The notes under the pieces are model-generated. The model was not told where the DNA came from. It did not search any database and saw nothing but the letters and a program-made list of their open reading frames with translations. Made by a program: the position numbers and the translations under genes. From contig JBQTJK010000040.1 in assembly GCA_052387215.1 (NCBI GenBank), positions 2,530-66,529 on the forward strand: a stretch of 64,000 nt of DNA, written 5' to 3'. This document shows, piece by piece, positions 1,971 through 22,080 of the stretch. This stretch comes from Caulobacteraceae bacterium. Its GTDB lineage: Bacteria; Pseudomonadota; Alphaproteobacteria; Caulobacterales; Aquidulcibacteraceae. Every line of letters starts with the position of its first letter. Position 1 is the first letter of the stretch.

Positions 1971-1981
1971 TCGGACCAATC

Positions 1982-2974
1982 ATGCAAGGCGACAGCGTCA
2001 ACAGGTTTCTGGACCGCTTCCTGGGGCTGGCGGATGCAGGCTTTGGCTTGATCCAAGGCGATGTTGCGTTCGTCTTGAACGCGCTCATCGTCATTTCCGT
2101 GACGCTGGCGGGCGCGATGTGGGCCTTGAAAGGCGAGGCGCCAATCGCGCCCTTCTTCCGCAAGGTCTTGTTCGTCGGGCTCTTCGCTTTCCTGGTCAAT
2201 AATTGGAATGCGATCGCCGGCGCGATCAATCAATCGGGCGCGCTGCTCGGATTGAAAGCGGGCGGGTCGGGCATGAGCCTTGCCCAATTGCACGATCCCG
2301 CGAGTGTCGCCGCTCAAGGCAAGGAGCTCTTCGGCCGCACCATGGAAATGGGCGACGGCATGAACATCTTCACCGACTTCCTGACGCTCGCCACCATCCT
2401 TCTTGCCGGCGTCATCATCCTCGTCGCTTTCTTCGTGCTGGCGCTACAGATTTTCGTCCAGCTGATCGCCTTCAAGCTCGGATCGCTCGCCGCCTTCATT
2501 GCGCTGCCATGGGGCGTTTTCTCCGGCACAGCATGGGTGGCTGAGCGTCCCCTCGGTTGGGTCGCAAGTTCAGCGGTGCGGCTCTTCCTGCTCGCCTTCG
2601 TCGCCAGCGTCGCCATCACCTTTGTCGCGACCATGCCGCAGACGATGACGCTGGAGAATGGCGGCGCGCTCGACGTGCTCCTGTTTGGACTCACAATCCT
2701 TGCCCTCTCTTTCTTGGCGCCTGCGCTCGCGAGCGAAGTGATGCAGGGCAACCCTAACCTCTCGGCGGCGCAGCCCATTCAGGGCGGCATTGCGGCAGTC
2801 GGCATGGTCGCGGGCGCCGGCGTCACGACGAAGATCCTCATGTCCGGCGCCGGCCGAGGCGGCGGACGCGGCATGCGCGGCGGCCGTCCCGGAAGCCCCC
2901 ACGGTGGGCGCGGCGGCGCCCGTGCGCAGCCGAACTACGCGGCGATGCAACCAAAACCACAACGCAAATCCTGA
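1982..2974 (+). CDS. trbL: P-type conjugative transfer protein TrbL (VirB6 family)
   Basis: Polytopic membrane protein, FKLGSLAAFIALPWGVF..AERPLGWV pattern, Gly/Arg-rich tail; position after trbJ. Confidence 0.9.
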   Translation: MQGDSVNRFLDRFLGLADAGFGLIQGDVAFVLNALIVISVTLAGAMWALKGEAPIAPFFRKVLFVGLFAFLVNNWNAIAGAINQSGALLGLKAGGSGMSLAQLHDPASVAAQGKELFGRTMEMGDGMNIFTDFLTLATILLAGVIILVAFFVLALQIFVQLIAFKLGSLAAFIALPWGVFSGTAWVAERPLGWVASSAVRLFLLAFVASVAITFVATMPQTMTLENGGALDVLLFGLTILALSFLAPALASEVMQGNPNLSAAQPIQGGIAAVGMVAGAGVTTKILMSGAGRGGGRGMRGGRPGSPHGGRGGARAQPNYAAMQPKPQRKS

Positions 2975-2989
2975 CGGAGCCAGAGAAAA

Positions 2990-3697
2990 ATGTTCGCCTT
3001 TCGACAGCCACCGAGGAGCTATGCGCCGGATCCGGCCGACACGCCGTACATGCGCGCACAACAAGCCTGGGACCGGCGCATGGGCACAGCCGTTCAAGGT
3101 GCGGTCACCTGGCGCTGGATCGCAATCGGGCTTGGCGCCCTGCTTGCCGCTTCAGTGCTCGGCGCGACGATGATCGCACTGCAGAAACGCACATTCCTAC
3201 ACGTCGTTGAGGTGAGCCCTCAAGGCGCCGTGCTCTCGGTGCGTCCCGCCGGCGGCGATTACACCCCGACGGACGCGCAGGTCAGCTACTTCCTTGGCCA
3301 CTTTGTGAAGCTGGTGCGCGGCGTGCCGACGGACGGCGTCGTGCTCCGCGAAAACTGGCTTGAAGCGTATCGCTTTCTGGCGCCGCAAGCCGCACAGCGC
3401 CTGAATGAGATCGCGCGCGAAGAAGATCCCTTCTCGCTCTTGGGCACGACGGCGCGAGCGGCCGTGATCACTTCAATCGTTCAGCGCTCGAACGAGACAT
3501 GGCAAGTGAGCTGGATCGAAGCAACGCACGGCGCAAACGGCGGCGCCCGGCGCGCTTATACTGGGCTCTTCACCATTCGCTTCGAGCGCCCACGCACGTC
3601 AGACGCGCTCGCGCGCAATCCGCTCGGCCTCTTCATTACAGAGTTCTCCTTCTCGCCCGAGGCGCCGGCTGCTGTGCTCCGTGGAGGTCAACAATGA
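2990..3697 (+). CDS. trbF: Conjugal transfer protein TrbF (VirB8 family)
   Basis: TPYMRAQQAWDRRMG N-terminus, one TM helix, C-terminal RNPLGLF motif. Confidence 0.93.
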   Translation: MFAFRQPPRSYAPDPADTPYMRAQQAWDRRMGTAVQGAVTWRWIAIGLGALLAASVLGATMIALQKRTFLHVVEVSPQGAVLSVRPAGGDYTPTDAQVSYFLGHFVKLVRGVPTDGVVLRENWLEAYRFLAPQAAQRLNEIAREEDPFSLLGTTARAAVITSIVQRSNETWQVSWIEATHGANGGARRAYTGLFTIRFERPRTSDALARNPLGLFITEFSFSPEAPAAVLRGGQQ

Positions 3698-4644
3698 GAC
3701 GCTCACGCCTTGCCGCTCTCTGGGCGCTCGCAGTGCTTTCGGCCTGCGCCACCGTGCCGACTGCAACTCCGATCGCTCAAGCCGAAGCGGTCCAGGAAAC
3801 TGCCGACCCTGGTCCGGTTGCGTCCGACATGGATATAGCCGATGACTTGGTCCCGCCCGCGAGCGCGCCAGCCCCAGCGCCCCGACGCCCGGCGCGCGTG
3901 GTGGCGCCAATCACTGCACTCACAACGGCAAACGCCGACGCGCGCCGCCGGCCCGATCCAAGCGCATTCGTCGACGCGACGCAGATCTACGATTATGCGC
4001 CCGGCGCGCTCTATGAAGTCTACACCGCGCCCGGCTATCTCTCGACTGTCCTGCTGGAGCCGGGCGAAGCGATCGTCACCGTCGCCGCTGGCGACACGAC
4101 GCGCTGGATGGTGGAAGAGACGACCTCCGGTGACATCGCCGATCCACGCACGCTACTGCTCGTGAAACCACTTCGCGCCGGCATCCGCACCAACATCGTG
4201 CTCGCAACAGATCGCCGCACCTATCTCATCGAAGCTATCGCCGTGCAGGGCAGCGCATACTCAGCACAAACCGCCTGGCGCTACCCGGACGACAGAGCCA
4301 GTCGCGATGCGACGAACATTGACGGCGTCGGGCTTGAAGAGTTGAACTTTCGCTATCGGATCGAGACTGTGCGCGGGCGCTCGCCACATTGGCGGCCCGT
4401 GCGCGTGTTCGATGATGGCCGGCGAACCTACGTCGAATTTCCGCTCGACATCGCCACCAGCGAAGCCCCGCCCCTCTTTCTTCGCGACGGCGCCGATGTT
4501 GCGCTCGTAAACTATCGCGTCGCCGGCAACCGCTATGTCATCGACCGCCTGTTCGACGTGGCCGAACTTCGGCTCGGCGGCCAACGCCAAACCATCGTGC
4601 GCATCAGCCGCGAACGTCCGCGGGCCACGGGAGGCCGCCGATGA
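3694..4644 (+). CDS. trbG: Conjugal transfer protein TrbG (VirB9 family)
   Basis: True start is ATG 3694 (ATGA overlap, GGAGG upstream); lipobox-like LSAC; LYEVYTAPG..GDTTRW, VFDDGRRTY motifs. Confidence 0.92.
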   Translation: MRRSRLAALWALAVLSACATVPTATPIAQAEAVQETADPGPVASDMDIADDLVPPASAPAPAPRRPARVVAPITALTTANADARRRPDPSAFVDATQIYDYAPGALYEVYTAPGYLSTVLLEPGEAIVTVAAGDTTRWMVEETTSGDIADPRTLLLVKPLRAGIRTNIVLATDRRTYLIEAIAVQGSAYSAQTAWRYPDDRASRDATNIDGVGLEELNFRYRIETVRGRSPHWRPVRVFDDGRRTYVEFPLDIATSEAPPLFLRDGADVALVNYRVAGNRYVIDRLFDVAELRLGGQRQTIVRISRERPRATGGRR

Positions 4645-5810
4645 GCGCCGACGACGAAATGCCTGCGAATGAAAGCGAACAACCGGCGCCGCAGGTGCAA
4701 CCCAAGACGCACGTGCCGCCCGCCACGGCCATTCGCGCCGCGCCGCCTAAGCCAAAGCAGCTCTCGCGTAAGACCCTGATGGCCGGTTCGCTGCTGTTGA
4801 GCTGTATCGTCGCGTTCGCGCTGGTGAACGGGCTTTCTGATCGCGAACGGCGAGGTTCGGCAGCTGAGGATTCGCAACCAGTGCAACCGGCATCGCCGCC
4901 AGAAAGCGTGCGCGACGCGCAAGCGGAATACAGCGCCAACGATCTCCGTCCTCCCATCGAGGAAGAGGGCCGTGACTATCTCTGGGGCGATCATCGTCCG
5001 GAGGGCGAAGGTGAAGCCTTGGACTCGGAAACAATCGCTGGGGCCGCGCCGCCCCCACCATCGCCCCTCGAACTCGAAGCGGATGCGGCGCGCATGTCGG
5101 CCATTCGTTTCGGCGGCGAGTCCCGTCGGAGCGTCCCGCCGCAGGCCGACGGCGCCGCGTCGCCTCCTGGTCCTGGCGCTGCCTTCGTCGCCAGCCAGCG
5201 CGGCCGCGACGATGGCGTACTGGACGCGAGCTATCGTCCGCCGCGTTCGCCTTATGCAATCCAGGCTGGATCGACGATCTCCGCGGCGCTCGTGACTGCA
5301 CTCAATTCCGACCAGCCCGGCCGCGTCGTCGCTCAAGTGACGGAAGACATCTACGACAGCGTCACCGGCGATCACCTGCTCGTGCCGCAGGGCTCACGCC
5401 TCCTGGGGACATACGACGCCGCCACCAATCACGGCGATCAGCGCCTGCTTGTGGTTTGGAATCGCCTGATCATGCCGAATGGCTGGTCGATTGCGCTTCG
5501 TGGCATGCCTGGAACGGACGCGGCGGGCGCGTCCGGCGTTCGCGATTCCGTCGATCAGCACCTCGGGCGGATTGCCGTCGCCTCGCTCCTCTCCGGCGCG
5601 CTCTCGGTGGCTGCAAACGCAGCCGAAGACGATGACAGCGACGCCTTGAGCCAAAATGTCGGCAACGCCGCGGCGCAGGAAGCCGCGCGCGTGGGCGGAC
5701 GCATCATTGACCGCGAACTGAATGTGCGCCCAACCTTGCACATCCGCGCCGGCGCGCCGGTGCGCGTGCTCGTGAGCCAAGACATCATCTTGAGGCCGTA
5801 TCCGCGATGA
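4641..5810 (+). CDS. trbI: Conjugal transfer protein TrbI (VirB10 family)
   Basis: TM anchor, AGSTISAALVTALNSDQPG, LLVPQGSRLLG, VWNRLIMPNG, RPTLHIRAG motifs. Confidence 0.93.
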   Translation: MSADDEMPANESEQPAPQVQPKTHVPPATAIRAAPPKPKQLSRKTLMAGSLLLSCIVAFALVNGLSDRERRGSAAEDSQPVQPASPPESVRDAQAEYSANDLRPPIEEEGRDYLWGDHRPEGEGEALDSETIAGAAPPPPSPLELEADAARMSAIRFGGESRRSVPPQADGAASPPGPGAAFVASQRGRDDGVLDASYRPPRSPYAIQAGSTISAALVTALNSDQPGRVVAQVTEDIYDSVTGDHLLVPQGSRLLGTYDAATNHGDQRLLVVWNRLIMPNGWSIALRGMPGTDAAGASGVRDSVDQHLGRIAVASLLSGALSVAANAAEDDDSDALSQNVGNAAAQEAARVGGRIIDRELNVRPTLHIRAGAPVRVLVSQDIILRPYPR

Positions 5811-6181
5811 ACAAACGGCCCGCCGGCCAGCGAGGACCCGATAAAGAGCAAACCGATCTCTTCGGCGCGGTCACTGTGCAACCACCGCAAAAGAAGACGC
5901 GCCGGGCGCCTCATGCTCATCCTCATTTCGCGCAAACACGATCGCCGTCTGCATTGACTTCGGCAAGCAAGGGCGTTGCAAGCGCCGCCGCGAATGGACT
6001 CCTGAACGTGCGTCAGGCCGCCCAGCGCCTTGGTCTTTCGAAATCGACGCTCGACAAAATGCGCTGCGCCGGCAAGGGTCCCCGCTTCATTAAGTCGACC
6101 GACAGAGCCGTCCGTTACGATCCTGTGGACCTCGATGCCTGGATCGCAAACCGGCGACGGACCAGCACCGCACAAGACTGA
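5807..6181 (+). CDS. AlpA/excisionase-like helix-turn-helix DNA-binding protein
   Basis: LLNVRQAAQRLGLSKSTLDKMRCAGKGPRFIK..VRYDPVDLDAWI is the winged-HTH pattern of Xis/AlpA proteins; ATGA overlap with trbI. Confidence 0.8.
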   Translation: MNKRPAGQRGPDKEQTDLFGAVTVQPPQKKTRRAPHAHPHFAQTRSPSALTSASKGVASAAANGLLNVRQAAQRLGLSKSTLDKMRCAGKGPRFIKSTDRAVRYDPVDLDAWIANRRRTSTAQD

Positions 6182-7001: not shown

Positions 7002-7814
7002 CTAGTTTTCGCTGACGCGAACCGGCTGGATCAACATCCGCTCGAGACGCAATTCCGCTGGGTCGCGAAATTGTTCGAGACCGATGATCATATCCTCGTG
7101 ACCATTCGCCGGTTGGGCGTGGTAGGTGCCAAACAACCGGTCCCACCACGGCAGATTGAAACCGAAATTGCTGTTCGTCTCATCCCGCCGCACCGAATGA
7201 TGCACGCGGTGCATGTCAGGCGTGACGACAATCAAGCGCAACATCCGATCAAGCGGCGCGGGAAGCTGGACGTTGGCATGATTGAACATCGTCGTGGCGT
7301 TGAGCAGCACCTCGAAGATCAAGACGGCGAGCGCCGGCGCGCCCAGCGCCAAGACCGCGCCTATCTTAATCAGCATCGAGAGCAAAATCTCGATCGGGTG
7401 AAACCGCACGCCGGTGGAGACGTCGAACTCAAGATCAGCATGATGGAGCCGATGAAGCCGCCACAGCCAAGGCACGGCGTGAAACACACGGTGCTGCCAA
7501 TAGATCACAAGATCGAGTGCGACCACTGAGCCCAAGATTGTAACCAGCGTTGGCGCGGCGATCACCTGAAACAGCCCCCAGCCATGCGATTCAGCTAAGA
7601 TCGCCGCACCGACCGCCGCCGCTGGAAAGGCGATGCGGAGCAAAACCGTGTTGATGATGGAAAGGCCGAGGTTACCTGGCCATCTGCTTGATCTTGCAAC
7701 GGCCTGAGACCGTTTGGGCGACATCACCTCCCAGATCGCCATGGCCGCGAATACGCCAACAAAAGCGCCGAGACGGATGAAAGGCTCGTTTGCCAACAAC
7801 GCTTGCCCAATCAC
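7002..7814 (-). CDS. Sterol desaturase / fatty acid hydroxylase family membrane di-iron enzyme
   Basis: His boxes YWQHRVFH, HRLHH, RFHP, HRVHHS; GTGA overlap with the upstream gene. Confidence 0.9.
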   Translation of the reverse strand: MIGQALLANEPFIRLGAFVGVFAAMAIWEVMSPKRSQAVARSSRWPGNLGLSIINTVLLRIAFPAAAVGAAILAESHGWGLFQVIAAPTLVTILGSVVALDLVIYWQHRVFHAVPWLWRLHRLHHADLEFDVSTGVRFHPIEILLSMLIKIGAVLALGAPALAVLIFEVLLNATTMFNHANVQLPAPLDRMLRLIVVTPDMHRVHHSVRRDETNSNFGFNLPWWDRLFGTYHAQPANGHEDMIIGLEQFRDPAELRLERMLIQPVRVSEN

Positions 7815-8593
7815 TCCAATTGGCTTTGAAAGGCGCGGATGCGCGCTGCATTCGCGCCAAGGTCGGATATGCCAACGCGCGACGTCGATCGCACCTCAAT
7901 GCGCGATCCCGCCGCCGCCGGCGAAACCTGCACCACGATGTCATCGACAAAGCCGAACCACAAAGAGCGTGCGCTCGCTTCGATACGGCCGCTTGCCGGC
8001 TCGGCGGCATCGATGCTCCATCCCTGCGCCTGCGCGGCGGCCAGCGCGGCCTCGAACGCTTCAGCGGGCTGCCGATCGAGCAGGATGGGCTGAATGTCGG
8101 GATAGGCGTTTTGTTGCAGAGCGCGCGCGGATTGGCCGGCCGCGGCGCCAAAGCGTGGATCGTCGGGGACGCGCGGATCAGCTTCGACCGGGTTGCCGCC
8201 CGGCACGCCGGCGCGCAGCTGCAGGACCCGCTCCGAAAACATCAATGGCGCGGCGGGATCGGAGACGATGTCGTGGATCGGCGGAACCGAAGCTGCTTGA
8301 TTGCGGACGTAACCAGCGTAGCCCAGCGCCAGCACCGGAATGATGAGCGCAAGCAGCGCACTGCCAATGCCGGTGCGGGGCCTCACCAAGGCTGCGAGCA
8401 GCAGCGCCACCAACGCGAGCCCAGCTGCGCCCATCAGCAGCATCGGCCCATAGCCCAGCGTCAGCGTCCCAAAGCCAACGCGCCAATCGATCAACCCATA
8501 ACGCGTCGCAAGCGCCGCCGCGGCGAAATAGACCGGCAGCGCAAGCGACACGAGAAGCGCAACCCCGACCAGAAAAGACCTGATCCGCGTCAT
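7811..8593 (-). CDS. DUF1499 domain membrane protein
   Basis: Three N-terminal TM helices, PPIHDIVSD, WFGFVDDIVVQV..RSTSRVGISDLGANAARI. Confidence 0.88.
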   Translation of the reverse strand: MTRIRSFLVGVALLVSLALPVYFAAAALATRYGLIDWRVGFGTLTLGYGPMLLMGAAGLALVALLLAALVRPRTGIGSALLALIIPVLALGYAGYVRNQAASVPPIHDIVSDPAAPLMFSERVLQLRAGVPGGNPVEADPRVPDDPRFGAAAGQSARALQQNAYPDIQPILLDRQPAEAFEAALAAAQAQGWSIDAAEPASGRIEASARSLWFGFVDDIVVQVSPAAAGSRIEVRSTSRVGISDLGANAARIRAFQSQLE

Positions 8594-9192
8594 CCACCCC
8601 TCCTTCTGGCCAGCTCCTGGCGCCAGCGGCGATAGCTTGGCCCGTCGTCTACGTCTTCCAATTCCCGCAGCATCTCAACATTCTTTCCCGCCAGGTTACG
8701 AAGCGTATCGGCGCGCGCCTGCGGCGTCGACCAGCGAACATTCGCGAACGGCAAATGCTGGCGCTCAGTTTGTGGGAAACCAACCAGCCAATAGCCGCCG
8801 TCGGGCGCGGGCCCCAGCACAGCGTCGGCGTTCTCCAATGCGTCGAATGCCGCCGCAATGTCGGCGGCGATGACCTGGGGCGCATCGCTGCCGATGAAAA
8901 TAAGTGACCCAGACGCCAATCGCTCGGAGATGCGCGTCATGCGTTCGCCCAGATCGCCTTCACCCTGGCCGATGACGTGCATGACGCCCGCAAACTGCAA
9001 AGGCTCGTCGGGCGTGATAGCTAAGTGAAGGCGCCAACGCGGGTCGCCGCCGAGCCTATCCAGAAGCTGTCCCAAGACGACGCGTTGGAAGCGGTGCGCC
9101 GTAACATCGCCCACGTCCGCTGCAAGCCGGCGCTTACCTTGGCCAAGAACGGGCCTGCGCGCCATCAAAACGAGATGACGCTCAGCGTTCAT
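8590..9192 (-). CDS. TIGR04282/DUF2064-like transferase (CofC-like nucleotide-diphospho-sugar transferase fold; arsenosugar-cluster associated)
   Basis: LVLMARRPVLGQGKRRLA, QGEGDLGERM, IGSDAP, VLGPAPDGGYWLVG, LEDVDD; start re-assigned to ATG 9192. Confidence 0.88.
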   Translation of the reverse strand: MNAERHLVLMARRPVLGQGKRRLAADVGDVTAHRFQRVVLGQLLDRLGGDPRWRLHLAITPDEPLQFAGVMHVIGQGEGDLGERMTRISERLASGSLIFIGSDAPQVIAADIAAAFDALENADAVLGPAPDGGYWLVGFPQTERQHLPFANVRWSTPQARADTLRNLAGKNVEMLRELEDVDDGPSYRRWRQELARRRGG

Positions 9193-9850
9193 AGAAGCGC
9201 GCAATGCGTTCGATCGGCGCGCCCACGCTGAACATAGTGAGACAGACAAGGTTGCGCGCGCTGCGCGCCACCCAGCCATCATCGCGCCAGCGCTGCGCCG
9301 ATGTAATCGCCGTACAAGGCAATGCCCTCAATCTACGCCGGCCGAGCCGGCGAACAAGATCGACATCCTCCATCAGCGGGAGCGGACGAAAGCCGCCAAG
9401 CGCCGCGTAAAGGCGCCGATGGATCAGGAGACCCTGATCTCCATAAGGCAGCGCAAGGACCTTGACCCGCAGCGCGACGAGCGCTTCCAACACGCGCGCT
9501 TGCCAGGCGCGATCGCCGAGCTTGAAGCGGAATACACACGCGATATCGGCCGCATTCGAGCTGCGCATATGCGCGTCGACATGTGTACGCCAATCCGCCG
9601 CGAGGACCGTGTCCGCGTGGAGAAAGAGCAGCCAGTCCTCTGTCGCCGCTTCGGCGCCAGCGTGCATTTGCTGTCCCCGCCCCCGCTCCGCTGTGACGAC
9701 GCGGGCGCCGGCGGCGCGGGCGAGGCGCACGCTCGCGTCTAGAGAGCCGCCATCAACGACGATGATTTCTTCGGCCGCCGCGATCGACCGAAGCGTCGCC
9801 GGCAAGCTCGCTTCGGCATTCAGCGCCGGGATGATGAGGGAAACACCCAT
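9182..9850 (-). CDS. TIGR04283-like family 2 glycosyltransferase (arsenosugar-cluster associated)
   Basis: SLIIPALNAE, VVDGGSLD, GRGQQMHAGA, LLFLHADT, YGDQGL, LMEDVDL, TSAQRW. Confidence 0.9.
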   Translation of the reverse strand: MGVSLIIPALNAEASLPATLRSIAAAEEIIVVDGGSLDASVRLARAAGARVVTAERGRGQQMHAGAEAATEDWLLFLHADTVLAADWRTHVDAHMRSSNAADIACVFRFKLGDRAWQARVLEALVALRVKVLALPYGDQGLLIHRRLYAALGGFRPLPLMEDVDLVRRLGRRRLRALPCTAITSAQRWRDDGWVARSARNLVCLTMFSVGAPIERIARFYER

Positions 9851-9992: not shown

Positions 9993-10727
9993 GTGGCAGA
10001 TAGCGAGCAAGCGGCGCCGGTTCGGCGCGGCGTGATAGGGCGAGTGGCGCTGGTTGGCATGCTAGCGCTTGCGCTCCTTGCGGCATGGCAATTCGGCCTC
10101 TTCGACTATCTCAACTTCGAAGCCCTACGGGCGCAGCGCGAGGACTTGTCCGCCTTCGTTGCCGCCAATCGGGTTCTGGCGTTCGCCGCCTTTGTTGCGG
10201 TCTACGTGCTCGTGACGGCGCTCGCGTTTCCAGGCGCATTCTGGGTCACGATCCTAGGCGGCTATTTGTTCGGTTTGGCTGGCGGCGCCATCGCCACGAC
10301 CATCGGCGCCACTTTAGGCGCGACAGCGTTATTCGTGATCGCGCGCTATCTGCTTGCCGATACATTGCGCGCGCGCGCCGGTCCTTTTCTGAAGCGCTTG
10401 GAAGCCGGCTTCCAGGAAAACGCCGTCAGCTATTTGCTGACGCTGCGCCTTGTTCCGGTCGTGCCGTTCTTCATCGCCAATGTCGCACCCGCTTTTCTCG
10501 GCGCGCGTTTGGCCACGTTCGCCTGGACGACTGCGGTCGGCATCATCCCCGGCGTCATTGCTTACACCTGGATTGGCGCAGGCCTCGGCGCAGCGTTTGA
10601 CGCCGGCGAAGCGCCCGACATCGCAGCGTTCGCACGCGAGCTGGCCCCTGCTTTCATCGCGTTGGCGCTGCTTACCATTGCGCCGGCGATCTATCGCCAG
10701 TTCAAACGTCCAAGGACCGCCACCTAG
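9993..10727 (+). CDS. TVP38/TMEM64 (DedA / VTT domain) membrane protein
   Basis: FPGAFWVTILGGYLFG, GATLGA, LRLVPVVPF..N, TAVGIIPG; GGAGG ribosome site. Confidence 0.92.
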   Translation: MADSEQAAPVRRGVIGRVALVGMLALALLAAWQFGLFDYLNFEALRAQREDLSAFVAANRVLAFAAFVAVYVLVTALAFPGAFWVTILGGYLFGLAGGAIATTIGATLGATALFVIARYLLADTLRARAGPFLKRLEAGFQENAVSYLLTLRLVPVVPFFIANVAPAFLGARLATFAWTTAVGIIPGVIAYTWIGAGLGAAFDAGEAPDIAAFARELAPAFIALALLTIAPAIYRQFKRPRTAT

Positions 10728-10740
10728 GAAACAAATCGCA

Positions 10741-12171
10741 ATGGAAAGCATCAAAGCCGACATCGCCATCATCGGCGCCGGCTCGGCCGGACTGGTCGCG
10801 GCCTCGGGGGCCGCACAGCTCGGCCAGAGAGTCGTGCTGTTCGAAGGCGGCGAAATGGGCGGCGACTGCCTGAACTATGGTTGTGTGCCCTCAAAATCAC
10901 TGATCGCTGCGGCGCGCGCAGCGGAAGGCGCGCGCGCCTCCGGCCCTCTCGGCTTGGAGATGACGCCGCCACGGACCGACTGGCCCCGCGTCAGAGCGCA
11001 CGTGCGTGGCGTGATCGACACAATCGCGCCAAACGACAGCCAAGAGCGCTTCGAGGGCCTGGGCGTGCGGGTCGTGCGCGAACGCGCGCGCTTTGCCGAC
11101 CCGCGTACGATCGTCTCAGAGAGCGTGCGCGTACGCGCGCGCATCATGGCGATCGCCACCGGCGCACGCGCCGGCGCTCCACCCATTCCGGGCTTGAGCG
11201 AAGTCCCCTATCTCACCAACGAAACCATCTTCGACATCGAGACGCTGCCCGCTCATCTTGTGATCCTGGGCGCAGGCGCGATTGGCTTGGAACTTGGACA
11301 AGCGTTTCGCCGCCTGGGCGCCGAGGTTACGCTGCTTGAGGCCGGCACGCTCTTCGGCGGCAAAGACAAAGGGGCGGCGGACGTTCTGCGCGCAAAGATG
11401 GCCGCAGAAGGGGTGACCCTGCTCGAATCCACGAACGTGCAGCGGATCGAAAACGCGGACGGCGCCATCGCCGCACACATCGAAAGAAACGGCGCCGCCA
11501 CACGGATCGAAGGCACGCATCTACTGGTCGCAACTGGGCGCAAACCCAACATCGAAGATCTAGGACTCGAAGCCGCTGGCGTCGCGTTCAGCGCGCCCGG
11601 TGTTACAACCGACGCAACACTGCGCACGTCCAATCGGCGCATCTACGCACTTGGCGACGTCGCCTCGCGCGAGCAGTTCACGCATGCCGCCGGCCTCCAT
11701 GGCTCATTGTTCGTACGCAACGCCCTCTTCAAACTATCACCCGGTCGCGCTGATGCGCCGCCCATCCCTCGTGTCATCTACACTGAGCCCGAATATGCAG
11801 CTGTTGGCCTTTCAGAGGCGGAAGCGCGGGAACGCTGGGGCGATCAGGTGCGCGTACTCTTTGTGCCGATGCACGACAATGACCGCGCCCAAACCGAGCG
11901 CGATGTTGAAGGTTTCGCCCGCATCATCGTTCGCAACACTGGCGATATCCTGGGCGCGGTCATCGTCGGCGCGCATGCCGGCGAAACAATTGCGACCGTC
12001 GCGCTGGCGATGGCCAACAAACTCAGAATAGCCGCCTTCACCTCAAGCTTTGTGCCCGCCTATCCGACCCGCGCGGAAATCTTGAAGCGCGCCGCAGGCC
12101 AGTTCTACACAGAGAGCCTGTTTTCCTCGCGCACCAAGCTTTTGGTACGCCTGCTCGCACATCTGCCTTGA
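10741..12171 (+). CDS. FAD-dependent pyridine nucleotide-disulfide oxidoreductase (dihydrolipoamide dehydrogenase/MerA-like family, not MerA)
   Basis: GAGSAG (FAD), GGDCLNYGCVPSK redox disulfide, GAGAIG (NAD(P)H), GD motif; start ATG 10741; no HMA domain or C-terminal Cys-Cys. Confidence 0.9.
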   Translation: MESIKADIAIIGAGSAGLVAASGAAQLGQRVVLFEGGEMGGDCLNYGCVPSKSLIAAARAAEGARASGPLGLEMTPPRTDWPRVRAHVRGVIDTIAPNDSQERFEGLGVRVVRERARFADPRTIVSESVRVRARIMAIATGARAGAPPIPGLSEVPYLTNETIFDIETLPAHLVILGAGAIGLELGQAFRRLGAEVTLLEAGTLFGGKDKGAADVLRAKMAAEGVTLLESTNVQRIENADGAIAAHIERNGAATRIEGTHLLVATGRKPNIEDLGLEAAGVAFSAPGVTTDATLRTSNRRIYALGDVASREQFTHAAGLHGSLFVRNALFKLSPGRADAPPIPRVIYTEPEYAAVGLSEAEARERWGDQVRVLFVPMHDNDRAQTERDVEGFARIIVRNTGDILGAVIVGAHAGETIATVALAMANKLRIAAFTSSFVPAYPTRAEILKRAAGQFYTESLFSSRTKLLVRLLAHLP

Positions 12172-12181
12172 GAGGAATCCG

Positions 12182-13057
12182 ATGACCACATGGCGCTTGG
12201 GCGTGATCGGCGGTTCGGGGCTTTATGACATCGACGCCATAGAGGACCGGCGCTGGTCGCGCATCCTCAGTCCCTGGGGTGAGGCTTCGGACGAGGTTCT
12301 GACCGGCGTCCTCCACGGCGTGCCGCTTACATTTCTGCCAAGGCACGGCAGAGGCCACAGGCTCTCACCGTCAGCCATCAACGCGCGCGCCAATATCGAC
12401 GTGCTGAAGCGGGCGGGCTGCACCGACATTCTCTCCATCGCAGCAGTAGGATCTTTGCGCGAAGATCTGCCGCCCGGCGCTTTTGTGCTCGCGGATCAAT
12501 ATATCGATTGCACGCGCGCGCGCCCGCAGAGTTTCTTTGGTGAAGGGCTCGTTGCGCATGTCGCGATGGCCAACCCGGTCTGCCCGCGGCTCTCGGCGCT
12601 GGTGCGCGACGCCGGCGCCCGCGCCGGTGTCGAGATCGGCGGCGGCGCTACATATTTGGCGATGGAGGGTCCGCAATTTTCAACGCGGGCGGAGAGCCGT
12701 CTTTACCGCAGCTGGGGATGCGACGTCATTGGCATGACGGCGATGCCAGAAGCACGCTTGGCGCGCGAGGCCGAACTTCCCTATGCAGCACTTTGCATGG
12801 TCACCGACTACGATTGCTGGCGTACAGATGATGCGGATGTCGATGTCGGCGCCATCCTTTCGGTGATGCGCGCCAATGCCGAGGCTGCCCGCCGCGTGAT
12901 TGCCGACCTGGTGCAGCATCTCAGTCAAACCCAGCGTCCGCCTTCGCCGATCGACACCGTGCTCGATTCCGCGATCGTCACCGATCCAGCGATCTGGGAT
13001 CAAGCGCTCATGAGCAAGCTGGACGCGATCTGCTCGCGGCGTTTCGCCAAAACGTGA
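12182..13057 (+). CDS. mtnP: S-methyl-5'-thioadenosine phosphorylase family (PNP/MTAP)
   Basis: GVIGGSG, LPRHGRGH, EGPQFSTRAES, IGMT..PEARLAREA, VTDYDCW. Confidence 0.92.
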   Translation: MTTWRLGVIGGSGLYDIDAIEDRRWSRILSPWGEASDEVLTGVLHGVPLTFLPRHGRGHRLSPSAINARANIDVLKRAGCTDILSIAAVGSLREDLPPGAFVLADQYIDCTRARPQSFFGEGLVAHVAMANPVCPRLSALVRDAGARAGVEIGGGATYLAMEGPQFSTRAESRLYRSWGCDVIGMTAMPEARLAREAELPYAALCMVTDYDCWRTDDADVDVGAILSVMRANAEAARRVIADLVQHLSQTQRPPSPIDTVLDSAIVTDPAIWDQALMSKLDAICSRRFAKT

Positions 13058-13071
13058 AAAGCGCCGGCCGC

Positions 13072-14028
13072 TCAGGCCGAACAGCTGCCGCCGCCAAGAA
13101 CACAAAATTTGGCGCAGTGGCGGTGGTTGAGCTTCACTGGCGCCACCGCGCCCTTAAGCGTTGGTCCAAGTTCGAAGCCCTGATCGTACGGCAACAAGGT
13201 GCAGGCAAGCACGGCCGGGGCGGCAGCGCCGGCGCGCTTGACCAGCATGCGCGCGCTTGCACACATCATCGCGCGCGGATCGACGTTGAGAATGTCCCAG
13301 CATTTCTCGCTGATCTCCGGCACGTCGACGCTCTCGTCCATCTCTGGGAAAAGCATGAGCTTCGCGGGATCGTAAGCATTGATCCCCCAGCCTTGGGCCG
13401 CGCTCAAGCGCGCATAGCCGGCCCGCGCCTGCGCTTCGCTTTCATGCCAAAGCGTCCGCCCCGCAAGTGAAATCCCAAATCCGTTGGCGATGAGCCAAGC
13501 GATGCCGTCAATCGTCTCCTCAAAGCCGCCGGGGCCGCGCTCTTCGTCATGACGGTCCGCGCTATAATGATCGAGGCTCACCCGAAGCGCCAATCGCGAA
13601 GCGTAAGCCTGTCGCAGGCCAAGAAGTGCGGCGCGCGGTTTGGGCCGCATCATCGGCCGCATCGCGTTGGTGAGAATGAGCACCAGATGCCCGCGCGCCA
13701 GCACCATTTCGGCGAGATCGCCCATGTGCGGGTTCATGAAAGGCTCGCCGCCGGTGAACCCAACTTCAATTGGCTCTGGGCTAAGAGCTTCGGCCTCCGC
13801 CAGGAACGGCGCGAGGTCGGCGGGGGTGAAATAGCTCAGCCGGTCGTTGGTGGGCGAGCTCTCAATGTAGCAGTTGGCGCATGTGATGTTGCAGAGCGTG
13901 CCAGTATTGACCCAGAGCGTCTTCAAGCTGTCGAACGCCACCACCGCCCGCGCCTCACCTTTCGCGGTGAGATCGGGATCCGAGAATTTGCCGGCGCCGA
14001 TGTGGCGGGTTTGTGCATCCACGCTCAT
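13072..14028 (-). CDS. Radical SAM protein with Cys-rich C-terminus, ArsS-like
   Basis: LWVNTGTLCNITCANCYIESSP (CxxxCxxC), FTGGEPF, LTN; C-terminal MC..C..HCAKFCVLGGGSC; start ATG 14028 overlaps the arsM stop (TGATG). Confidence 0.85.
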   Translation of the reverse strand: MSVDAQTRHIGAGKFSDPDLTAKGEARAVVAFDSLKTLWVNTGTLCNITCANCYIESSPTNDRLSYFTPADLAPFLAEAEALSPEPIEVGFTGGEPFMNPHMGDLAEMVLARGHLVLILTNAMRPMMRPKPRAALLGLRQAYASRLALRVSLDHYSADRHDEERGPGGFEETIDGIAWLIANGFGISLAGRTLWHESEAQARAGYARLSAAQGWGINAYDPAKLMLFPEMDESVDVPEISEKCWDILNVDPRAMMCASARMLVKRAGAAAPAVLACTLLPYDQGFELGPTLKGAVAPVKLNHRHCAKFCVLGGGSCSA

Positions 14029-15089
14029 CAGCAGCATCCCGGCGCCGGCGCCGCCCCAACGTCTGCCTCTGCGAAAGGCGCTTCGGCGCCGCAACCGGGA
14101 AATATCCCGAAGTGTCTCGCGAAATCGCCGATGAACTCGAAGTGCGGCGTAAAGCGGCTTTCCCGCAACATGCGCCAAGTGTTGCCGCACACCGCAAAGA
14201 CCTTACCCGCCTCGATCCGGTGATGGGCATCAAGCTCAAACACAGTTTCGGCGCCAGTGACGCCGCCACGATAGATGACGGCCTGGCCATAATCTTCGCA
14301 CGCAGGCTCTAGATCGGGAATGTTGTAGAGCCGGTAGGTCGCCGAGTAAAAGCGCGCCGCGCCGAGTAGCGAGGCGAGTGTTGCGTCGGTAATGGCGAGC
14401 GCCCTCGATTTGACCAAGCGCGGATCTGGAAATCCGCTCGCGCGCGCCAAGTGTTGAAAGTCGTTCCAGTAAAGCGCGCCCGCCAAACACTCCCCGTGCA
14501 GCACCGGATCAGTCTTCAGCGCTTCGGGCAGACGCCGGTCAGCGTAGACATCGGCGAAGTAAAATTCGCCGCCAGCTTTGAGCAGCGCACGCGCCGCCGC
14601 GAACACAGCAGCCTTGTTCTCAACCAGATTGATCACGCAATTGGAGACAATCACGTCGAAGCTCTCCGGTTGGAGCCCAAGAGTGTCCAATTGGGTGATA
14701 TCGCCGTCCACGAAAGTCACGTTTGACCGGGAATAGCCGAACTGCTCGCGGTGCCACTCGGCGTGTTGACGGGCGACGCTCAGCTGCTCAGGTGTTGCAT
14801 CGACGCCAACGACCGCGCCGCGCGCGCCGACAAGTTGCGCCAACACGTACACATCTCGGCCCGCGCCGCAGCCCAGATCGAGAACGCGCGCGCCCTCTAG
14901 CTTCGCTGGTGCAACTAGCCCACAACCGTAGTAACGAGCTTCGACCTCGGGATGGACCCGTCTAAGGGCCGCTTCGACCAGGGCGCCCGGTCGATCGGCG
15001 GTCGAGCAGGCGTCGGTGCGTAAGTCGCGCGATCCGCCCAACACCTTGCCGTAATAATCGCGCGCATTCGCAAGCCCGCCATCCTCCAT
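14028..15089 (-). CDS. arsM: Arsenite S-adenosylmethionine methyltransferase (ArsM/AS3MT-type)
   Basis: Four Cys contexts typical of AS3MT: DLRTDACST, RYYGCGL, VSNCVINL, GECLAGALYW; SAM motif LDLGCGAGRD; ends PGCC; GGAG 8 nt before ATG 15089. Confidence 0.85.
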   Translation of the reverse strand: MEDGGLANARDYYGKVLGGSRDLRTDACSTADRPGALVEAALRRVHPEVEARYYGCGLVAPAKLEGARVLDLGCGAGRDVYVLAQLVGARGAVVGVDATPEQLSVARQHAEWHREQFGYSRSNVTFVDGDITQLDTLGLQPESFDVIVSNCVINLVENKAAVFAAARALLKAGGEFYFADVYADRRLPEALKTDPVLHGECLAGALYWNDFQHLARASGFPDPRLVKSRALAITDATLASLLGAARFYSATYRLYNIPDLEPACEDYGQAVIYRGGVTGAETVFELDAHHRIEAGKVFAVCGNTWRMLRESRFTPHFEFIGDFARHFGIFPGCGAEAPFAEADVGAAPAPGCC

Positions 15090-15118
15090 CGACACATCTC
15101 CGCTTTGTTTTCATTGAA

Positions 15119-15231: not shown

Positions 15232-16023
15232 ATGGGAGTTAAGAACTTGATACGGCGGTGTCTGCTGGCAGGCTTGACCCTCTCGTTTGTTCCTTCGGCG
15301 GCGATCGCAGCCGACGATCAGCCCTTCGATACGCTGCTGTCGCGCTATGTGGTGGTCTCGCCTGACGGGGTGAACCGGGTCCGGTATCGCGCCTGGGCCG
15401 CCAACACCGCTGACCGGGGCGCACTCGACGCCTATGTCGCCGCACTCGAACGCGAAGTCCCTTCCCGGATGGCGCGCAATGAAGCCTTTGCCTATTGGGC
15501 CAATCTCTACAACGCGGTGACGCTTCAAACCGTGCTGGAGAATTATCCTATCCGCTCGATCCGCGATGTTCGCAGCCGCACGCTCGATCCCCGCGGACTG
15601 ATCGGTCCGTGGCGAACCGAGCGCGTTCGCGTTGAGGGCCGACGCCTTACGCTTGACGCCATCGAGCATGACATTTTGCGGCCTACCTTTGGCGATCCGC
15701 GTGTGCACTATGCGGTCAATTGCGCCTCGATCGGCTGCCCCAACCTTCCGACCCGCGCCTGGCGCGCGGCAACGCTCGATCAAGACCTAGATGCCGCCGC
15801 ACGCGCCTATGTCAATCACAGACGCGGCGCGCGGTTCGACGCCAATGGGCGGCTGGAAGTCTCCAGTATCTATAACTGGTTCGCGAGGGATTTCGGCGGT
15901 TCACCAAATGGCGTGCTCGCGCATTTGCGCACCTACGCTGCGCCTGCGCTTTCGGAGCGTCTGCGATCGACACGCGTCGTCGCCGGCCATTCCTATGATT
16001 GGTCATTGAACGACGTAAACTAA
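15232..16023 (+). CDS. DUF547 domain exported protein
   Basis: Signal peptide; AYWANLYNAVT, TLDAIEHDILR, DPRVHYAVNCASIGCP, SSIYNWF..DF, YDWSLND. Confidence 0.92.
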   Translation: MGVKNLIRRCLLAGLTLSFVPSAAIAADDQPFDTLLSRYVVVSPDGVNRVRYRAWAANTADRGALDAYVAALEREVPSRMARNEAFAYWANLYNAVTLQTVLENYPIRSIRDVRSRTLDPRGLIGPWRTERVRVEGRRLTLDAIEHDILRPTFGDPRVHYAVNCASIGCPNLPTRAWRAATLDQDLDAAARAYVNHRRGARFDANGRLEVSSIYNWFARDFGGSPNGVLAHLRTYAAPALSERLRSTRVVAGHSYDWSLNDVN

Positions 16024-16043: not shown

Positions 16044-16698
16044 TCACTCTCGTTCCTCCCTCTCGGGCCGGTACCATCGTTCGAGCCGCTCTGGCGCAAC
16101 GCCTAAATGATAGAGCCCTACCAGAATAGCGCTCATGAACTCGCGCCGCGCCACGCCATCGCGCAGAAACCGCCGCGCCGAAGTGGTCATCGGCGCACTG
16201 AGCTTCGCAATCCGCCCGGCCCGGCGCAGCCGCTGAAGAATCTCAACATCCTCAAAAAGCGGTAGATCGCGATAACCGCCGATCTGGTCGTAGGTCTCTC
16301 GCGTCACAAACAGACCCTGATCGCCATAGGTAAAAGCGCTCGTGTTGATACGGCTCATGAAGGCATAGACCCTGAGCAAGGGGTGGGCGTCATCGAAGGC
16401 GAGCCTGAAACACCCGGCGCTGACACCCGGGCGCGCCAGCGCCGCCTTAATCAGTACACGTGCTTCAGGCGGAGGCTTGGAATCCGCGTGAACGAAGAAG
16501 AGCGCCTCGCCCGAGGCCGCGCGCACTCGTCACCAATACGGCGCCCGCGGCGCGCGCCTCGGCATGCGTCTCATCGCGCGACCCACCATCGGCGACGACA
16601 ATGTCGTCGAAACCTTGTGACCGCAGCGCCGCAACAAGCGCGCCAATGCGCGCGCCTTCGTCGAGAGCCGGAATGACAACGCTGATGCGCATCTTCAA
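16044..16698 (-). pseudogene. Second TIGR04283-like GT2 glycosyltransferase, broken by an internal deletion/frameshift at 16516-16524
   Basis: Frame A: MRISVVIPALDE..VADGGSRD..VTSARG; frame B: AASGEALFFVHADS..YGDQGL..LFEDVE..TTSARRF; the GRGxQMxAGA segment present in the paralogue is missing. Confidence 0.85.
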
Positions 16699-17300
16699 GG
16701 TCGCGACACGCGCATGACCTCCACCCTCACCGCCTCCAGCACGCGCGGCGCGTCGCGCCGCATGCCGGCGCGAATAAGGCCAGACGGCAGCGGCGCGCGT
16801 GGCGCCAGGTAGAAATCATAGTGAAGCCGCGTCGCCTGCCCGCCTTCGCGTGGCTCCAGCACCCACGAGCCTTGCATGGAAGCCAGATCGCCGCTGATTC
16901 GATTGACCCGGATCACGCGCTCGGGCTCATACTCGGAACGAAAGCGCAGCCGCAACGTCGGCAGCAGCGCCAGCCAACGTATGCGATGCTCGCGCACGTC
17001 GCTCAATCCGTCGGCGGCGCGCTCGATTATGGCGCATGATTGAAGGCCCGGAACATAATGAGGGGCTCGTGCACAATCGAGCATAACCCTCCAGACGAGA
17101 GCCGGCGGCGCTGCAATGTCGATCGCCGCCTGCACCCGCCCACCTGGGCCCGCCGCGTCAACCACACGCGCGATCGCTTCGCCGCGCTCCAACCGCGCCT
17201 CGTCATCGGTGTTCCATTGGGCCATCGCGATGGTGGGCCAAAGCACAAGCGCGCACGCCGCTAGAAGCGCCGCCCCCACCCTTCGATGCAAAGCAAGCAT
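16695..17300 (-). CDS. SRPBCC/START (polyketide cyclase-like) ligand-binding protein with signal peptide
   Basis: AAIDIAAPPALVWRVMLDC..PHYVPGL..C, GDLASMQGSWVLEP; start ATG 17300, 4 nt after the PiT stop. Confidence 0.8.
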   Translation of the reverse strand: MLALHRRVGAALLAACALVLWPTIAMAQWNTDDEARLERGEAIARVVDAAGPGGRVQAAIDIAAPPALVWRVMLDCARAPHYVPGLQSCAIIERAADGLSDVREHRIRWLALLPTLRLRFRSEYEPERVIRVNRISGDLASMQGSWVLEPREGGQATRLHYDFYLAPRAPLPSGLIRAGMRRDAPRVLEAVRVEVMRVSRP

Positions 17301-17304
17301 GGGC

Positions 17305-18387
17305 TTAGCCTCCAATGCCGTGAAAGATAAGCCAAGCACAAACCGCCGCGAACGGCAGCGTCGCCACCCAAGACGCCAACACAGTGCGCACGGCTCGCCA
17401 GTCGACGGTCCGCGCCTGGGCCCCAACGCCCGCGATCGCGCCAACTGACACGTGCGTCGTTGAGACCGGCAACGCAAACGCACTAGCGCTCAAGACTAAT
17501 GTCGCCGTGACAAGATTGGCGGTGAGACCTTGCGCGGGATCCAAGCGATTAAGGCGCAAGCTCATGGTCTCGGCGACGCGGCGCGAAAATAGGAACCCGC
17601 CCGCAACCATCGCCACCCCGGTCAGCACCGCGGGTCCCGCCCCGCCAAAGCCTTGCGCCACTAGAAGCAAAGCGGCGAGCTTGGGCGTGTCATTGGTGCT
17701 TCGGGCAAAGCATACAATTGCCGCCGACGCGATGTGCACGCGGTCGAGCACGGCGCCAGCGGCCACGCGCACCTGCGTCTCTAGCAAGCGATTGCAAACT
17801 TCAGCACTTGAGAAGGTAGCGCTCGCCCGCTGCATGCTCGGTGAGCGCGCTGCGGCCGTTGCCGCTGGTGCAAACTCGGCTTCACGGGTGACACACATGC
17901 AATCGCGTCCGCGCAGGCGCTCACCGGCGAGCCACTGCGCGACAAAGCCAAAGGCAGCCGAGACGATCGGGCTTAACAGGAGCGGCGCGACGAAGACCGC
18001 CGCGAGCGCGCCGAGATTGACATCGCCCGCGGCAAGCCCCGCTCCGAGCAATCCGCCGATGAGAGCGTGGGTGGTGGATATGGGCAACGCCGCCCGCGTA
18101 GCGGCCAGCACAGTGATGGCCGCGCCCGCTGCGACCGCGGCCAAGAAAGCTGGATCGGCGATGACCGCGTCGCCAACCAGGCCCTTGCCGGAAAACTGGC
18201 GGGTAAGGCCGCTCGCCAACACCACCGACACAACGCTACCCGCCGCCGTGGCGAAGCTCGCCCAGAGAAGCGCTGCGCGATAGCCGAGCGCGTTCGATCC
18301 CCAGACCGTGGCGAAGCCCTTGAAATTGTCATTGGCGCCGTTGGCGAACGCGAGGAACACACCTGCCGTGAGGATGAATATCTCCAT
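17305..18387 (-). CDS. Inorganic phosphate transporter, PiT family
   Basis: Signature motifs GANDNFKGFAT and (A)RSTNDTPK, PISTTHALIG, PVSTTHVSVG; many TM helices. Confidence 0.9.
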   Translation of the reverse strand: MEIFILTAGVFLAFANGANDNFKGFATVWGSNALGYRAALLWASFATAAGSVVSVVLASGLTRQFSGKGLVGDAVIADPAFLAAVAAGAAITVLAATRAALPISTTHALIGGLLGAGLAAGDVNLGALAAVFVAPLLLSPIVSAAFGFVAQWLAGERLRGRDCMCVTREAEFAPAATAAARSPSMQRASATFSSAEVCNRLLETQVRVAAGAVLDRVHIASAAIVCFARSTNDTPKLAALLLVAQGFGGAGPAVLTGVAMVAGGFLFSRRVAETMSLRLNRLDPAQGLTANLVTATLVLSASAFALPVSTTHVSVGAIAGVGAQARTVDWRAVRTVLASWVATLPFAAVCAWLIFHGIGG

Positions 18388-21792: not shown

Positions 21793-22007
21793 ACCCCGCC
21801 AACAGCGGGATCGACGCGTCCGGGAAACAATCAGTTCATAATGCAACGGCGCGAGCGCGCGTTTTCGCCTTCGATCCAGAGGTAGCAACACCAGGAAACA
21901 CCGACACGCTAGCCACCTTCGCGCATGTTCCGGGCGTGGAGCCCGCGGGCGTTCGTTAGAACCCCAGCGCCCAATTCCTCATCGGCGCACGGGTGAGGAC
22001 GGGGCGG

Positions 22008-22080
22008 TGGGCCCGCCTGGACTCGAACCAGGAACCAGACCGTTATGAGCGGCCGGCTCTAACCATTGAGCTACGGGCCC
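22008..22080 (-). tRNA. tRNA-Ile2 (anticodon CAU, lysidine-type); 3' end encoded as ACCG, so no complete CCA
   Basis: GGGCCCGTAGCTCAATGGTTAGAGCCGGCCGCTCATAACGGTCTGGTTCCTGGTTCGAGTCCAGGCGGGCCCA folds into a cloverleaf with a paired G1-C72 (not fMet); overall sequence fits Ile2 better than elongator Met. Confidence 0.9.

Follow-up and report, generated by a model that had tools for sequence, protein, structure and literature searches.

An S-methyl-5'-thioadenosine phosphorylase gene within an arsenosugar-type gene cluster on a putative mobile island of a Caulobacteraceae bacterium

What an mtnP gene, coding for an S-methyl-5'-thioadenosine phosphorylase (MTAP), does among arsenic, radical S-adenosylmethionine (SAM) and glycosyltransferase genes is the question raised by a stretch of 64,000 nucleotides (nt) from a Caulobacteraceae bacterium (contig JBQTJK010000040.1 of GenBank assembly GCA_052387215.1, positions 2,530 to 66,529 of the forward strand). 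We refer to the whole of this stretch as the window. An earlier note on it, written from the sequence alone, had proposed that MtnP could remove adenine from dimethylarsinoyl-adenosine. Our results are best explained if mtnP has been recruited into an 'arsenosugar-type' cluster on a putative mobile island, as a component that not all such clusters have. The type of enzyme is known, and its role-context is new and recurrent. Arsenosugar synthesis lacks an enzyme for the removal of adenine, and the MTAP of the cluster is a credible candidate for that step; an arsenical substrate and the steps downstream of it are what we infer.

Recurrence of mtnP beside the transferase genes

In the window, mtnP is an open reading frame (ORF) of 291 codons that starts with ATG, is preceded by the Shine-Dalgarno-like stretch GAGAGGAA and has zero internal stops. 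Spacers of 13 nt between dedA and the oxidoreductase gene and of 10 nt between the latter and mtnP separate the three genes on the same strand, so that the earlier description of an intact mtnP (a frame of 291 amino acids, aa) as the last gene of a dedA-oxidoreductase operon holds. The triad is kept in five related loci (L002, L006, L182, L185 and L187; L numbers denote the loci compared), with DedA being 84-86% identical in L002 and L006. Relatives of the window MtnP with at least 73% identity form one clade and have the same operon wherever the contig is long enough, and contigs matched by their length add further cases. The mtnP stop codon ends at 13057 and that of the convergent radical SAM gene starts at 13072, which leaves the 14 nt that had been reported between them. 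We rejected this gap as a meaningful feature, since the spacing differs in relatives: L002, L006, L185 and L187 have an overlap of 4 nt instead, and in L182, which with 91% identity is the closest relative, about 10 kb separate the two genes. No terminator or promoter signals above shuffled expectation were found at the 14-nt gap. When transcription evidence was sought, only DNA runs were found to contain the window sequence.

MTAP genes occur inside clusters of TIGR04283 and TIGR04282 transferase genes in at least four tight gene orders and in a looser neighbourhood in Methylocystaceae, spanning Alpha- and Betaproteobacteria. The order of the window and of the five loci above is dedA-oxidoreductase-mtnP beside a pair of genes for a family 2 glycosyltransferase (GT2) of TIGR04283 and a DUF2064 protein of TIGR04282. 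In L092, genes for a fatty-acid hydroxylase and a DUF1499 protein precede an mtnP that converges on a radical SAM-GT2 pair. MtnP abuts the GT2 there, and likewise in L090, L098, L100 and L133, in an order unlike that of the window. A third order, found in L058 (Hyphomicrobiales), has Pyr_redox-mtnP, then GT2, then an ORF joining phosphoesterase and radical SAM domains. The fourth is an operon of DUF6969, MTAP, TIGR04283, TIGR04282 and oxidoreductase genes on plasmids of Burkholderia glumae and B. thailandensis that also have a true ArsS. The MTAP of these plasmids is only 43% identical to the window MtnP; of the 72 plasmid records in which any MTAP is found, 49 are such plasmids, which represent one lineage. 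In Methylocystis and Methylosinus the linkage is loose, with MtnP lying 3-10 kb from DUF2064, GT2, ArsM, DUF547 and pst genes.

When metagenomes were scanned with the GT2 as seed, 80 loci were obtained. Most were GT2-DUF2064 pairs in a conserved housekeeping neighbourhood, and about 15 were clustered with a window-type radical SAM gene, in some cases accompanied by DedA and the oxidoreductase. In this unbiased scan MtnP was seen beside the GT2 in 5 of the clustered loci, compared to about 0.1 per 80 expected from chance adjacency. MtnP stays with the transferases even if the radical SAM gene lies at a distance of 6-10 kb or is not found nearby at all (L182, Burkholderia, L171). Because the association survives rearrangement and is seen in distant lineages and with both types of radical SAM protein, mtnP and the cluster appear to be functionally coupled, and it is well supported that mtnP belongs to the cluster and is not there by chance.

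The association might instead have been centred on the radical SAM family. That family is present in more than 570 species, nearly all of them Alphaproteobacteria. We scanned one genome per species, a set in which the window contig is not included (best match to its radical SAM protein 66%), and inspected the 80 best loci (L008-L087), of which only one has MtnP nearby. This suggests that the linkage is with the transferase cluster and not with this radical SAM family generally. The family usually stands alone, and in Rhodobacterales it adjoins zwf-pgl-pgi, dcd and gyrA. ArsM was adjacent to a window-type radical SAM gene only in the window, L185, L023 and L046.

The MtnP, radical SAM and oxidoreductase proteins

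MtnP scores 149.2 bits against PF01048 (PNP_UDP_1) in a Pfam scan and 282.4 bits against the MTAP model TIGR01694, above the cut-off of 274.85, while it falls narrowly below the cut-off of the alphaproteobacterial model NF006492 (421.4 vs 437). The nearest solved structures are all MTAPs, with 4GLF at 249 bits and the human enzyme 1CB0 at 213 bits, and also 1WTA; E values of the Protein Data Bank (PDB) matches range from 1e-62 to 1e-73. MtnP is not a member of the HpnG family (25.6 bits against TIGR03468, cut-off 187.1), and there are no hpn genes in the window. We checked the ligand positions Thr18, Arg60, His61, Thr93, Ala94, Phe177, Ser178, Met196, Thr197, Asp220 and Asp222, in the numbering of human MTAP, with which the PDB alignments of MtnP agree. 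The catalytic, phosphate, ribose and adenine ligands are kept, with Ser for Thr18 as in bacterial MTAPs and position 93 as the sole exception. At residue 87, the equivalent of Ser/Thr93, the window MtnP has Ala, which among the 23 clade members is found in one other; in all other MTAPs compared it is Ser or Thr, save one with Asn. The pocket for the 5'-alkylthio group (His65, His137, Val233, Val236, Leu237) reads His, His, Val, Ile, Leu. Judged by its sequence, MtnP is an ordinary MTAP, predicted to be a catalytically competent phosphorylase of this family and probably active on 5'-methylthioadenosine (MTA) as well as on 5'-deoxyadenosine. A tblastn search found no second MtnP in the 64-kb window, and the exact protein was found only on a contig of 3.4 kb. 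Pfam scans of its approximately 70 ORFs found no IF-2B/MtnA, Aldolase_II/MtnB, ARD/MtnD or MtnK, in agreement with the earlier claim that neither mtnA nor another methionine-salvage gene is nearby.

The radical SAM protein has a CX3CX2C motif at Cys46/50/53 and the C-terminal motif HCAKFCVLGGGSCS, which corresponds to the terminal cysteine motif HCFGCTAGxGSSCS of ArsS. Its score against the ArsS model TIGR04167 is 58.9, with a cut-off of 300, and the alignment covers the N-terminal half only. ArsS nevertheless ranks second among the 25 NCBIfam matches listed. It aligns by hhalign over residues 34-185 with 98.5% probability (E 2e-15) and is the nearest annotated family in a tblastn search of plasmid records, at 28-31% identity. 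On these comparisons the protein is a distant ArsS homologue and not ArsS proper; ArsS, an adenosyl-transferring enzyme, is its nearest characterised family. Six C-terminal cysteines are invariant in the window-type family.

The oxidoreductase is of the class-I flavin adenine dinucleotide (FAD) disulfide type, with the redox-active motif GGDCLNYGC. It was considered as a mercuric reductase (MerA) and ruled out, as the C-terminal Cys pair is absent and its score against NF004991 (447) is under the cut-off of 620. In L092 (3946-6084, minus strand) an apparent fusion of 712 aa joins DedA/VTT to the FAD oxidoreductase, and in L058 (9077-10987, plus strand) a metallophosphoesterase and a radical SAM protein share one apparent ORF of 636 aa. 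These apparent fusions suggest functional coupling within the DedA/oxidoreductase and phosphoesterase/radical SAM pairs.

Proposed pathway and rival explanations

Among the major arsenic species of marine food webs and of the human diet are arsenosugars and arsenosugar lipids, and only the first two steps of their biosynthesis, ArsM and ArsS, have assigned enzymes. ArsS attaches the 5'-deoxyadenosyl radical to dimethylarsenite, which gives DDMAA (5'-deoxy-5'-dimethylarsinoyl-adenosine). For the removal of adenine or the formation of the riboside, steps that have been postulated for decades, no gene was named in the literature that we searched; a 2026 preprint states that DDMAA can afterwards be stripped of its adenine and leaves the enzyme unnamed. 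The same literature contained no functional study that links an arsenosugar with a phosphorylase or nucleosidase. A direct precedent exists in hopanoid synthesis, where the radical SAM enzyme HpnH adenosylates diploptene and HpnG, a homologue of purine nucleoside phosphorylase (PNP), strips the adenine, probably by phosphorolysis (PMC13459092). MtnP itself accepts other 5' groups, e.g. 5'-deoxyadenosine (PMC8102628).

As with HpnH and HpnG, the radical SAM enzyme may produce a 5'-substituted adenosine for MtnP to phosphorolyse, a reading that we hold to be quite possible, if somewhat short of probable. In the pathway so envisaged, every chemical step of which we infer, ArsM would methylate As(III), and the translationally coupled ArsS-like radical SAM enzyme would move the 5'-deoxyadenosyl group of SAM onto the methylated arsenical. 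The product would be DDMAA or, in clusters without ArsM, another 5'-substituted 5'-deoxyadenosine. MtnP and phosphate would then cut the N-glycosidic bond, giving adenine and a 5-substituted alpha-D-ribose-1-phosphate. The DUF2064/TIGR04282 protein, with its nucleotidyltransferase-like GT-A fold, might activate this sugar phosphate, possibly to a nucleoside diphosphate sugar, and the TIGR04283 GT2 might pass the sugar to an acceptor. MTAP yields alpha-ribose-1-phosphate, and GT2 is an inverting glycosyltransferase family; inversion of the alpha donor would give a beta-riboside, a stereochemical fit to the beta-ribofuranosides of natural arsenosugars. More tentatively, MTAP-family proteins could be the long-sought adenine-removing enzymes of bacterial arsenosugar-type pathways, feeding nucleotidylation by TIGR04282 and transfer by TIGR04283 proteins. 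A complete mobile pathway from arsenite to beta-ribosides, borne by integrative elements and plasmids, would then be defined, and with it a second, ArsS-like radical SAM family, widespread in Alphaproteobacteria, that transfers the adenosyl group; we put this forward with rather low confidence. If the MTAP of the cluster does remove the adenine, the remaining steps could be assigned to concrete candidates in the TIGR04282 and TIGR04283 proteins beside it, the whole pathway could be rebuilt in vitro from genes of culturable Burkholderia, and the strategy of radical adenosylation followed by de-purination would have a third example.

The resemblance to known systems is partial in each case. As in the HpnH/HpnG system (PMC13459092), a radical SAM protein would add the 5'-deoxyadenosyl group and an enzyme of the PNP_UDP_1 superfamily encoded in the cluster would strip the adenine and leave a ribosyl(-phosphate) group; in contrast, the window protein is an MTAP proper, its acceptor is presumed to be an arsenical and not diploptene, and there are no hopanoid genes. 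The ArsM/ArsS arsenosugar system (Haft's 'rSAM/selenodomain-associated' set) likewise has ArsM and a TIGR04283 GT2, whose window counterpart scores over the cut-off, and ArsS clusters of Pseudanabaena, Burkholderia and Hymenobacter contain DedA, a 'mercuric-reductase-like' oxidoreductase and DUF547, as found beside the window radical SAM gene. However, the window radical SAM protein is under the ArsS cut-off and aligns in its N-terminal core only, the ArsS model having a DUF3641-type C-terminal domain; the window also has no phosphoesterase, and neither the published nor the curated accounts of that system include an MtnP. Housekeeping MtnP, which serves methionine salvage and 5'-deoxyadenosine salvage (the dihydroxyacetone phosphate shunt), shares family, catalytic residues and length with the window copy, but the latter sits in a biosynthetic operon on the putative island, and the 64 kb contain neither an isomerase nor an aldolase as partner. 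In the MqnE/futalosine pathway, too, the product of radical SAM adenosylation (aminofutalosine) is de-purinated; that pathway leads to menaquinone, and its de-purination is hydrolytic, by an MTA-cleaving nucleosidase of the MtnN type rather than a phosphorylase.

Several findings weigh against the pathway that we propose. The replacement by Ala of Ser/Thr93, which is a phosphate ligand in human MTAP, is one of them. The hydrophobic 5' pocket is identical between in-cluster and housekeeping MtnPs, and a search for a specificity signature among 23 MtnPs of the window clade, 3 of the L090 group, that of L058 and 97 other alphaproteobacterial MtnPs gave no residue exclusive to the in-cluster copies. 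The radical SAM scan showed no cluster genes near 77 of its 80 best loci. MtnP is missing from about half of the clustered loci (L088, L094, L111, L125, L145, L148, L151 and L167) and from the clusters of Roseomonas, Pseudanabaena and Hymenobacter. ArsM is absent from most clusters, which means that the substrate need not be arsenical. In a neighbour-joining tree the in-cluster MtnPs are polyphyletic, standing in at least three separate places among housekeeping copies; the MtnP of L090 is 78% identical to the housekeeping copy P0105, which lies between glycerate kinase and YkuD genes, and P0114, the branch nearest to the window clade, is likewise in a housekeeping setting. The tree and the identity values rule out a dedicated clade or specialised subfamily of in-cluster MtnPs, each of which may simply be the sole MtnP of its genome. 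What stands of the interpretation given in the earlier note is the cluster membership of mtnP, a genuine ArsM coupled to the radical SAM gene, and the HpnH/HpnG precedent; the sequence of MtnP contains no pointer to an arsenical.

The main rival, which the earlier note had named as a simpler alternative for 5'-deoxyadenosine and which we consider less likely, is that the MtnP of the cluster acts on SAM-derived waste, either MTA or the 5'-deoxyadenosine that radical SAM enzymes form in canonical or in abortive cycles. It would thereby relieve product inhibition and salvage adenine, and the glycosyl chemistry of the cluster would not use its product. An active site and 5' pocket of the ordinary MTAP type are consistent with such clearance, as is the cleavage by MtnP of 5'-deoxyadenosine, which inhibits radical SAM enzymes (PMC8102628). 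Some clusters (Burkholderia, Roseomonas) have two radical SAM genes, and a helper that a chromosomal copy can replace would be expected to be dispensable, as MtnP is in about half of the clusters. However, the 64 kb contain no mtnA, aldolase or other salvage gene to use the ribose-1-phosphate, and productive adenosyl transfer of the ArsS type uses up the radical, so that no 5'-deoxyadenosine is made. The linkage moreover tracks the transferases, DedA and the oxidoreductase and not the radical SAM gene (L182, Burkholderia, L171). Since MtnP follows the transferases where the radical SAM gene is distant, we favour a role in the pathway over protection of the radical SAM enzyme. Should MtnP only clear 5'-deoxyadenosine or MTA, the locus would be a modest example in which a radical SAM cluster is accompanied on its travels by a helper gene.

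It is improbable that mtnP is the ordinary salvage gene of the organism, placed beside the cluster by chance or hitch-hiking. The protein does score as an MTAP equivalog and shares 63-68% identity with many MtnPs of Alphaproteobacteria that stand in housekeeping contexts, where MtnP normally lies apart from other salvage genes (L168, L169, L180). Against this stand the recurrence in at least four rearranged tight orders and the excess over chance adjacency to the GT2, together with close co-operonic spacing, a codon composition that is that of the island and not of the chromosome, and the plasmid-borne copies of Burkholderia. The radical SAM protein could also resemble ArsL and move the 3-amino-3-carboxypropyl group of SAM to arsenic, in an arsinothricin-like reaction that frees MTA; this we regard as very improbable. 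An operon of ArsM and radical SAM genes is found in arsQML too, ArsL is reported to form MTA, the canonical MtnP substrate, and the window ArsM partially matches the arsinothricin ArsM model (122, cut-off 500). Yet no ArsL-type model is among the 25 NCBIfam matches listed for the radical SAM protein, which is nearer to ArsS by tblastn and hhalign as well. The window has no arsQ permease, its two transferases would have no role in arsinothricin synthesis, and a true ArsS holds the same cluster position in other genomes.

The putative mobile island and the neighbouring genes

The features of the window are listed in Table 1. The Trb genes span 106-5810 and, with the HTH_17 gene, may form the left part of a putative integrative conjugative element carrying the cluster; the tRNA-Met gene is its likely boundary. 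The G+C content at third codon positions (GC3) is 0.72 ± 0.02 in the cluster genes (mtnP 0.72) and 0.73 in the Trb genes, compared to 0.80 ± 0.03 in the housekeeping genes to the right of tRNA-Met, which include cysS, folE, purA, serA and mutL (Mann-Whitney p = 1.8e-5 for the shift). The flanks of the same cluster are wholly different in L002, L006, L182, L185 and L187, with an integrase following the cluster in L002. No integrase and no second attachment (att) site or att repeat was found within the window, and the element would run off its left end. Positions 1-22080 probably make up the right end of such an element. Given the GC3 values, the Trb genes, the flanking tRNA-Met and the changing flanks, mtnP and the cluster are probably island cargo and not resident chromosomal genes. 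Genes for MsrB and a fasciclin protein within 1-22080 also have a GC3 of about 0.72-0.73. Just outside the island, near cysS, a full-length bacterial serpin is encoded at 24340-25575 on the minus strand (PF00079, 323 bits).

Table 1 Positions of the cluster genes and island features in the window
Feature	Coordinates	Strand	Remarks
Trb/VirB-type conjugation genes and HTH_17 gene	106..6181	+	Pfam: TraG/TrbE-like, TrbJ, TrbL, VirB8/TrbF, CagX/TrbG, TrbI
Fatty-acid-hydroxylase superfamily membrane enzyme	7002..7814	-	PF04116, 110 bits; kept in L002, L006, L092, L182, L187
DUF1499 protein	7811..8593	-	PF07386, 88 bits; cluster member also in L002, L006, L092, L185
DUF2064/TIGR04282 CofC-like GT-A-fold transferase	8590..9282	-	PF09837, 95 bits; TIGR04282 132.5 (cut-off 134)
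GT2 glycosyltransferase, TIGR04283 family	9182..9850	-	214.3 (cut-off 182); divergent from dedA
DedA/VTT membrane protein	9993..10727	+	PF09335, 69.9 bits; first gene of the operon ending in mtnP
FAD pyridine-nucleotide-disulfide oxidoreductase	10741..12171	+	476 aa; Pyr_redox_2, 181 bits
mtnP	12182..13057	+	S-methyl-5'-thioadenosine phosphorylase family, 291 aa; third and last gene of the dedA-oxidoreductase-mtnP operon
Radical SAM protein	13072..14028	-	318 aa; PF04055; convergent on mtnP
arsM, As(III) S-adenosylmethionine methyltransferase homologue	14028..15095	-	PDB 5EVJ (arsenite methyltransferase), 360 bits
DUF547 protein	15232..16023	+	PF04784, 85 bits; recurrent cluster member
Second TIGR04283-like GT2, disrupted	16083..16692	-	tblastn matches in two frames; stop codon within 16044-16694
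SRPBCC/polyketide-cyclase-like protein and PHO4 (PiT) phosphate transporter	16695..18387	-	PF03364, PF01384
tRNA-Met	22006..22080	-	ARAGORN; 3' end faces the cluster

The ArsM of the window has all four conserved cysteines (DAC, YGCG, SNCV, GECL) when aligned to 5EVJ, and the arsM stop codon overlaps the start codon of the radical SAM gene (TGATG). Its score against the arsenosugar-specific model NF038099 is 77.7, below the cut-off of 400. The DUF2064 ORF probably starts near 9204, and the closest structure to its product is PDB 3CGX, a 'putative nucleotide-diphospho-sugar transferase' (E 1.5e-12). DUF547 is also found in L002, L006 and L185 and in the clusters of Burkholderia, Roseomonas and Hymenobacter. 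The second GT2 is broken by a frameshift or stop, and its counterpart is intact in L185 (227 aa), where the SRPBCC-PHO4 pair follows the cluster as well. A pair of genes for NrsF and an extracytoplasmic function (ECF) sigma factor lies between arsM and DUF547 in L185, and the window is without it. A tblastn search found no phosphoesterase in the window. We considered MtnP and the phosphoesterase as mutually exclusive alternatives, which is ruled out as both are present in L058 and Burkholderia.

In the metagenome loci L096-L162, the TIGR04283-TIGR04282 pair is mostly found with CcrM, RNase HII, MogA, uracil-DNA glycosylase and ETF-QO, in a neighbourhood that also holds a 376-aa PA0069/SplB-like radical SAM gene. 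A tblastn search with the window proteins found no ArsM- or ArsS-like genes near these pairs, which calls into question a blanket 'arsenosugar' name for TIGR04282 and TIGR04283. Their 'arsenosugar biosynthesis' label is guilt by association, and no functional study of TIGR04282, TIGR04283 or DUF2064 was found in the literature searched.

Other gene combinations were seen around related clusters. Next to DUF547, two Burkholderia plasmids (L174, L176) and a Roseomonas plasmid (L175) encode a further radical SAM protein, about 460 aa long; the Burkholderia clusters also have CcdA, thioredoxin and a sigma/anti-sigma pair, and in L175 a phosphite/phosphonate-type ATP-binding cassette transporter comes straight after the ArsS-like gene. 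In Methylocystis and Methylosinus (L171, L004, L005), MtnP is flanked by sets of genes for bufferin-like ribosomally synthesised and post-translationally modified peptides (BufA1, MbnB/TglH, HvfC, DoxX), with one such set on either side of MtnP in Methylocystis. On the megaplasmid of Mycetohabitans rhizoxinica (L181), mtnP is in another biosynthetic-looking operon, together with genes for two DegT aminotransferases, a NUDIX protein, an FAD oxidoreductase, HAD hydrolases, a fatty acid desaturase and NudK, which may be another recruitment of MTAP into a pathway. In L006, genes at 1146-4508 for an EgtD-like protein (Methyltransf_33), an EgtB-like protein (DinB_2 with FGE-sulfatase) and a class-V aminotransferase adjoin the cluster.

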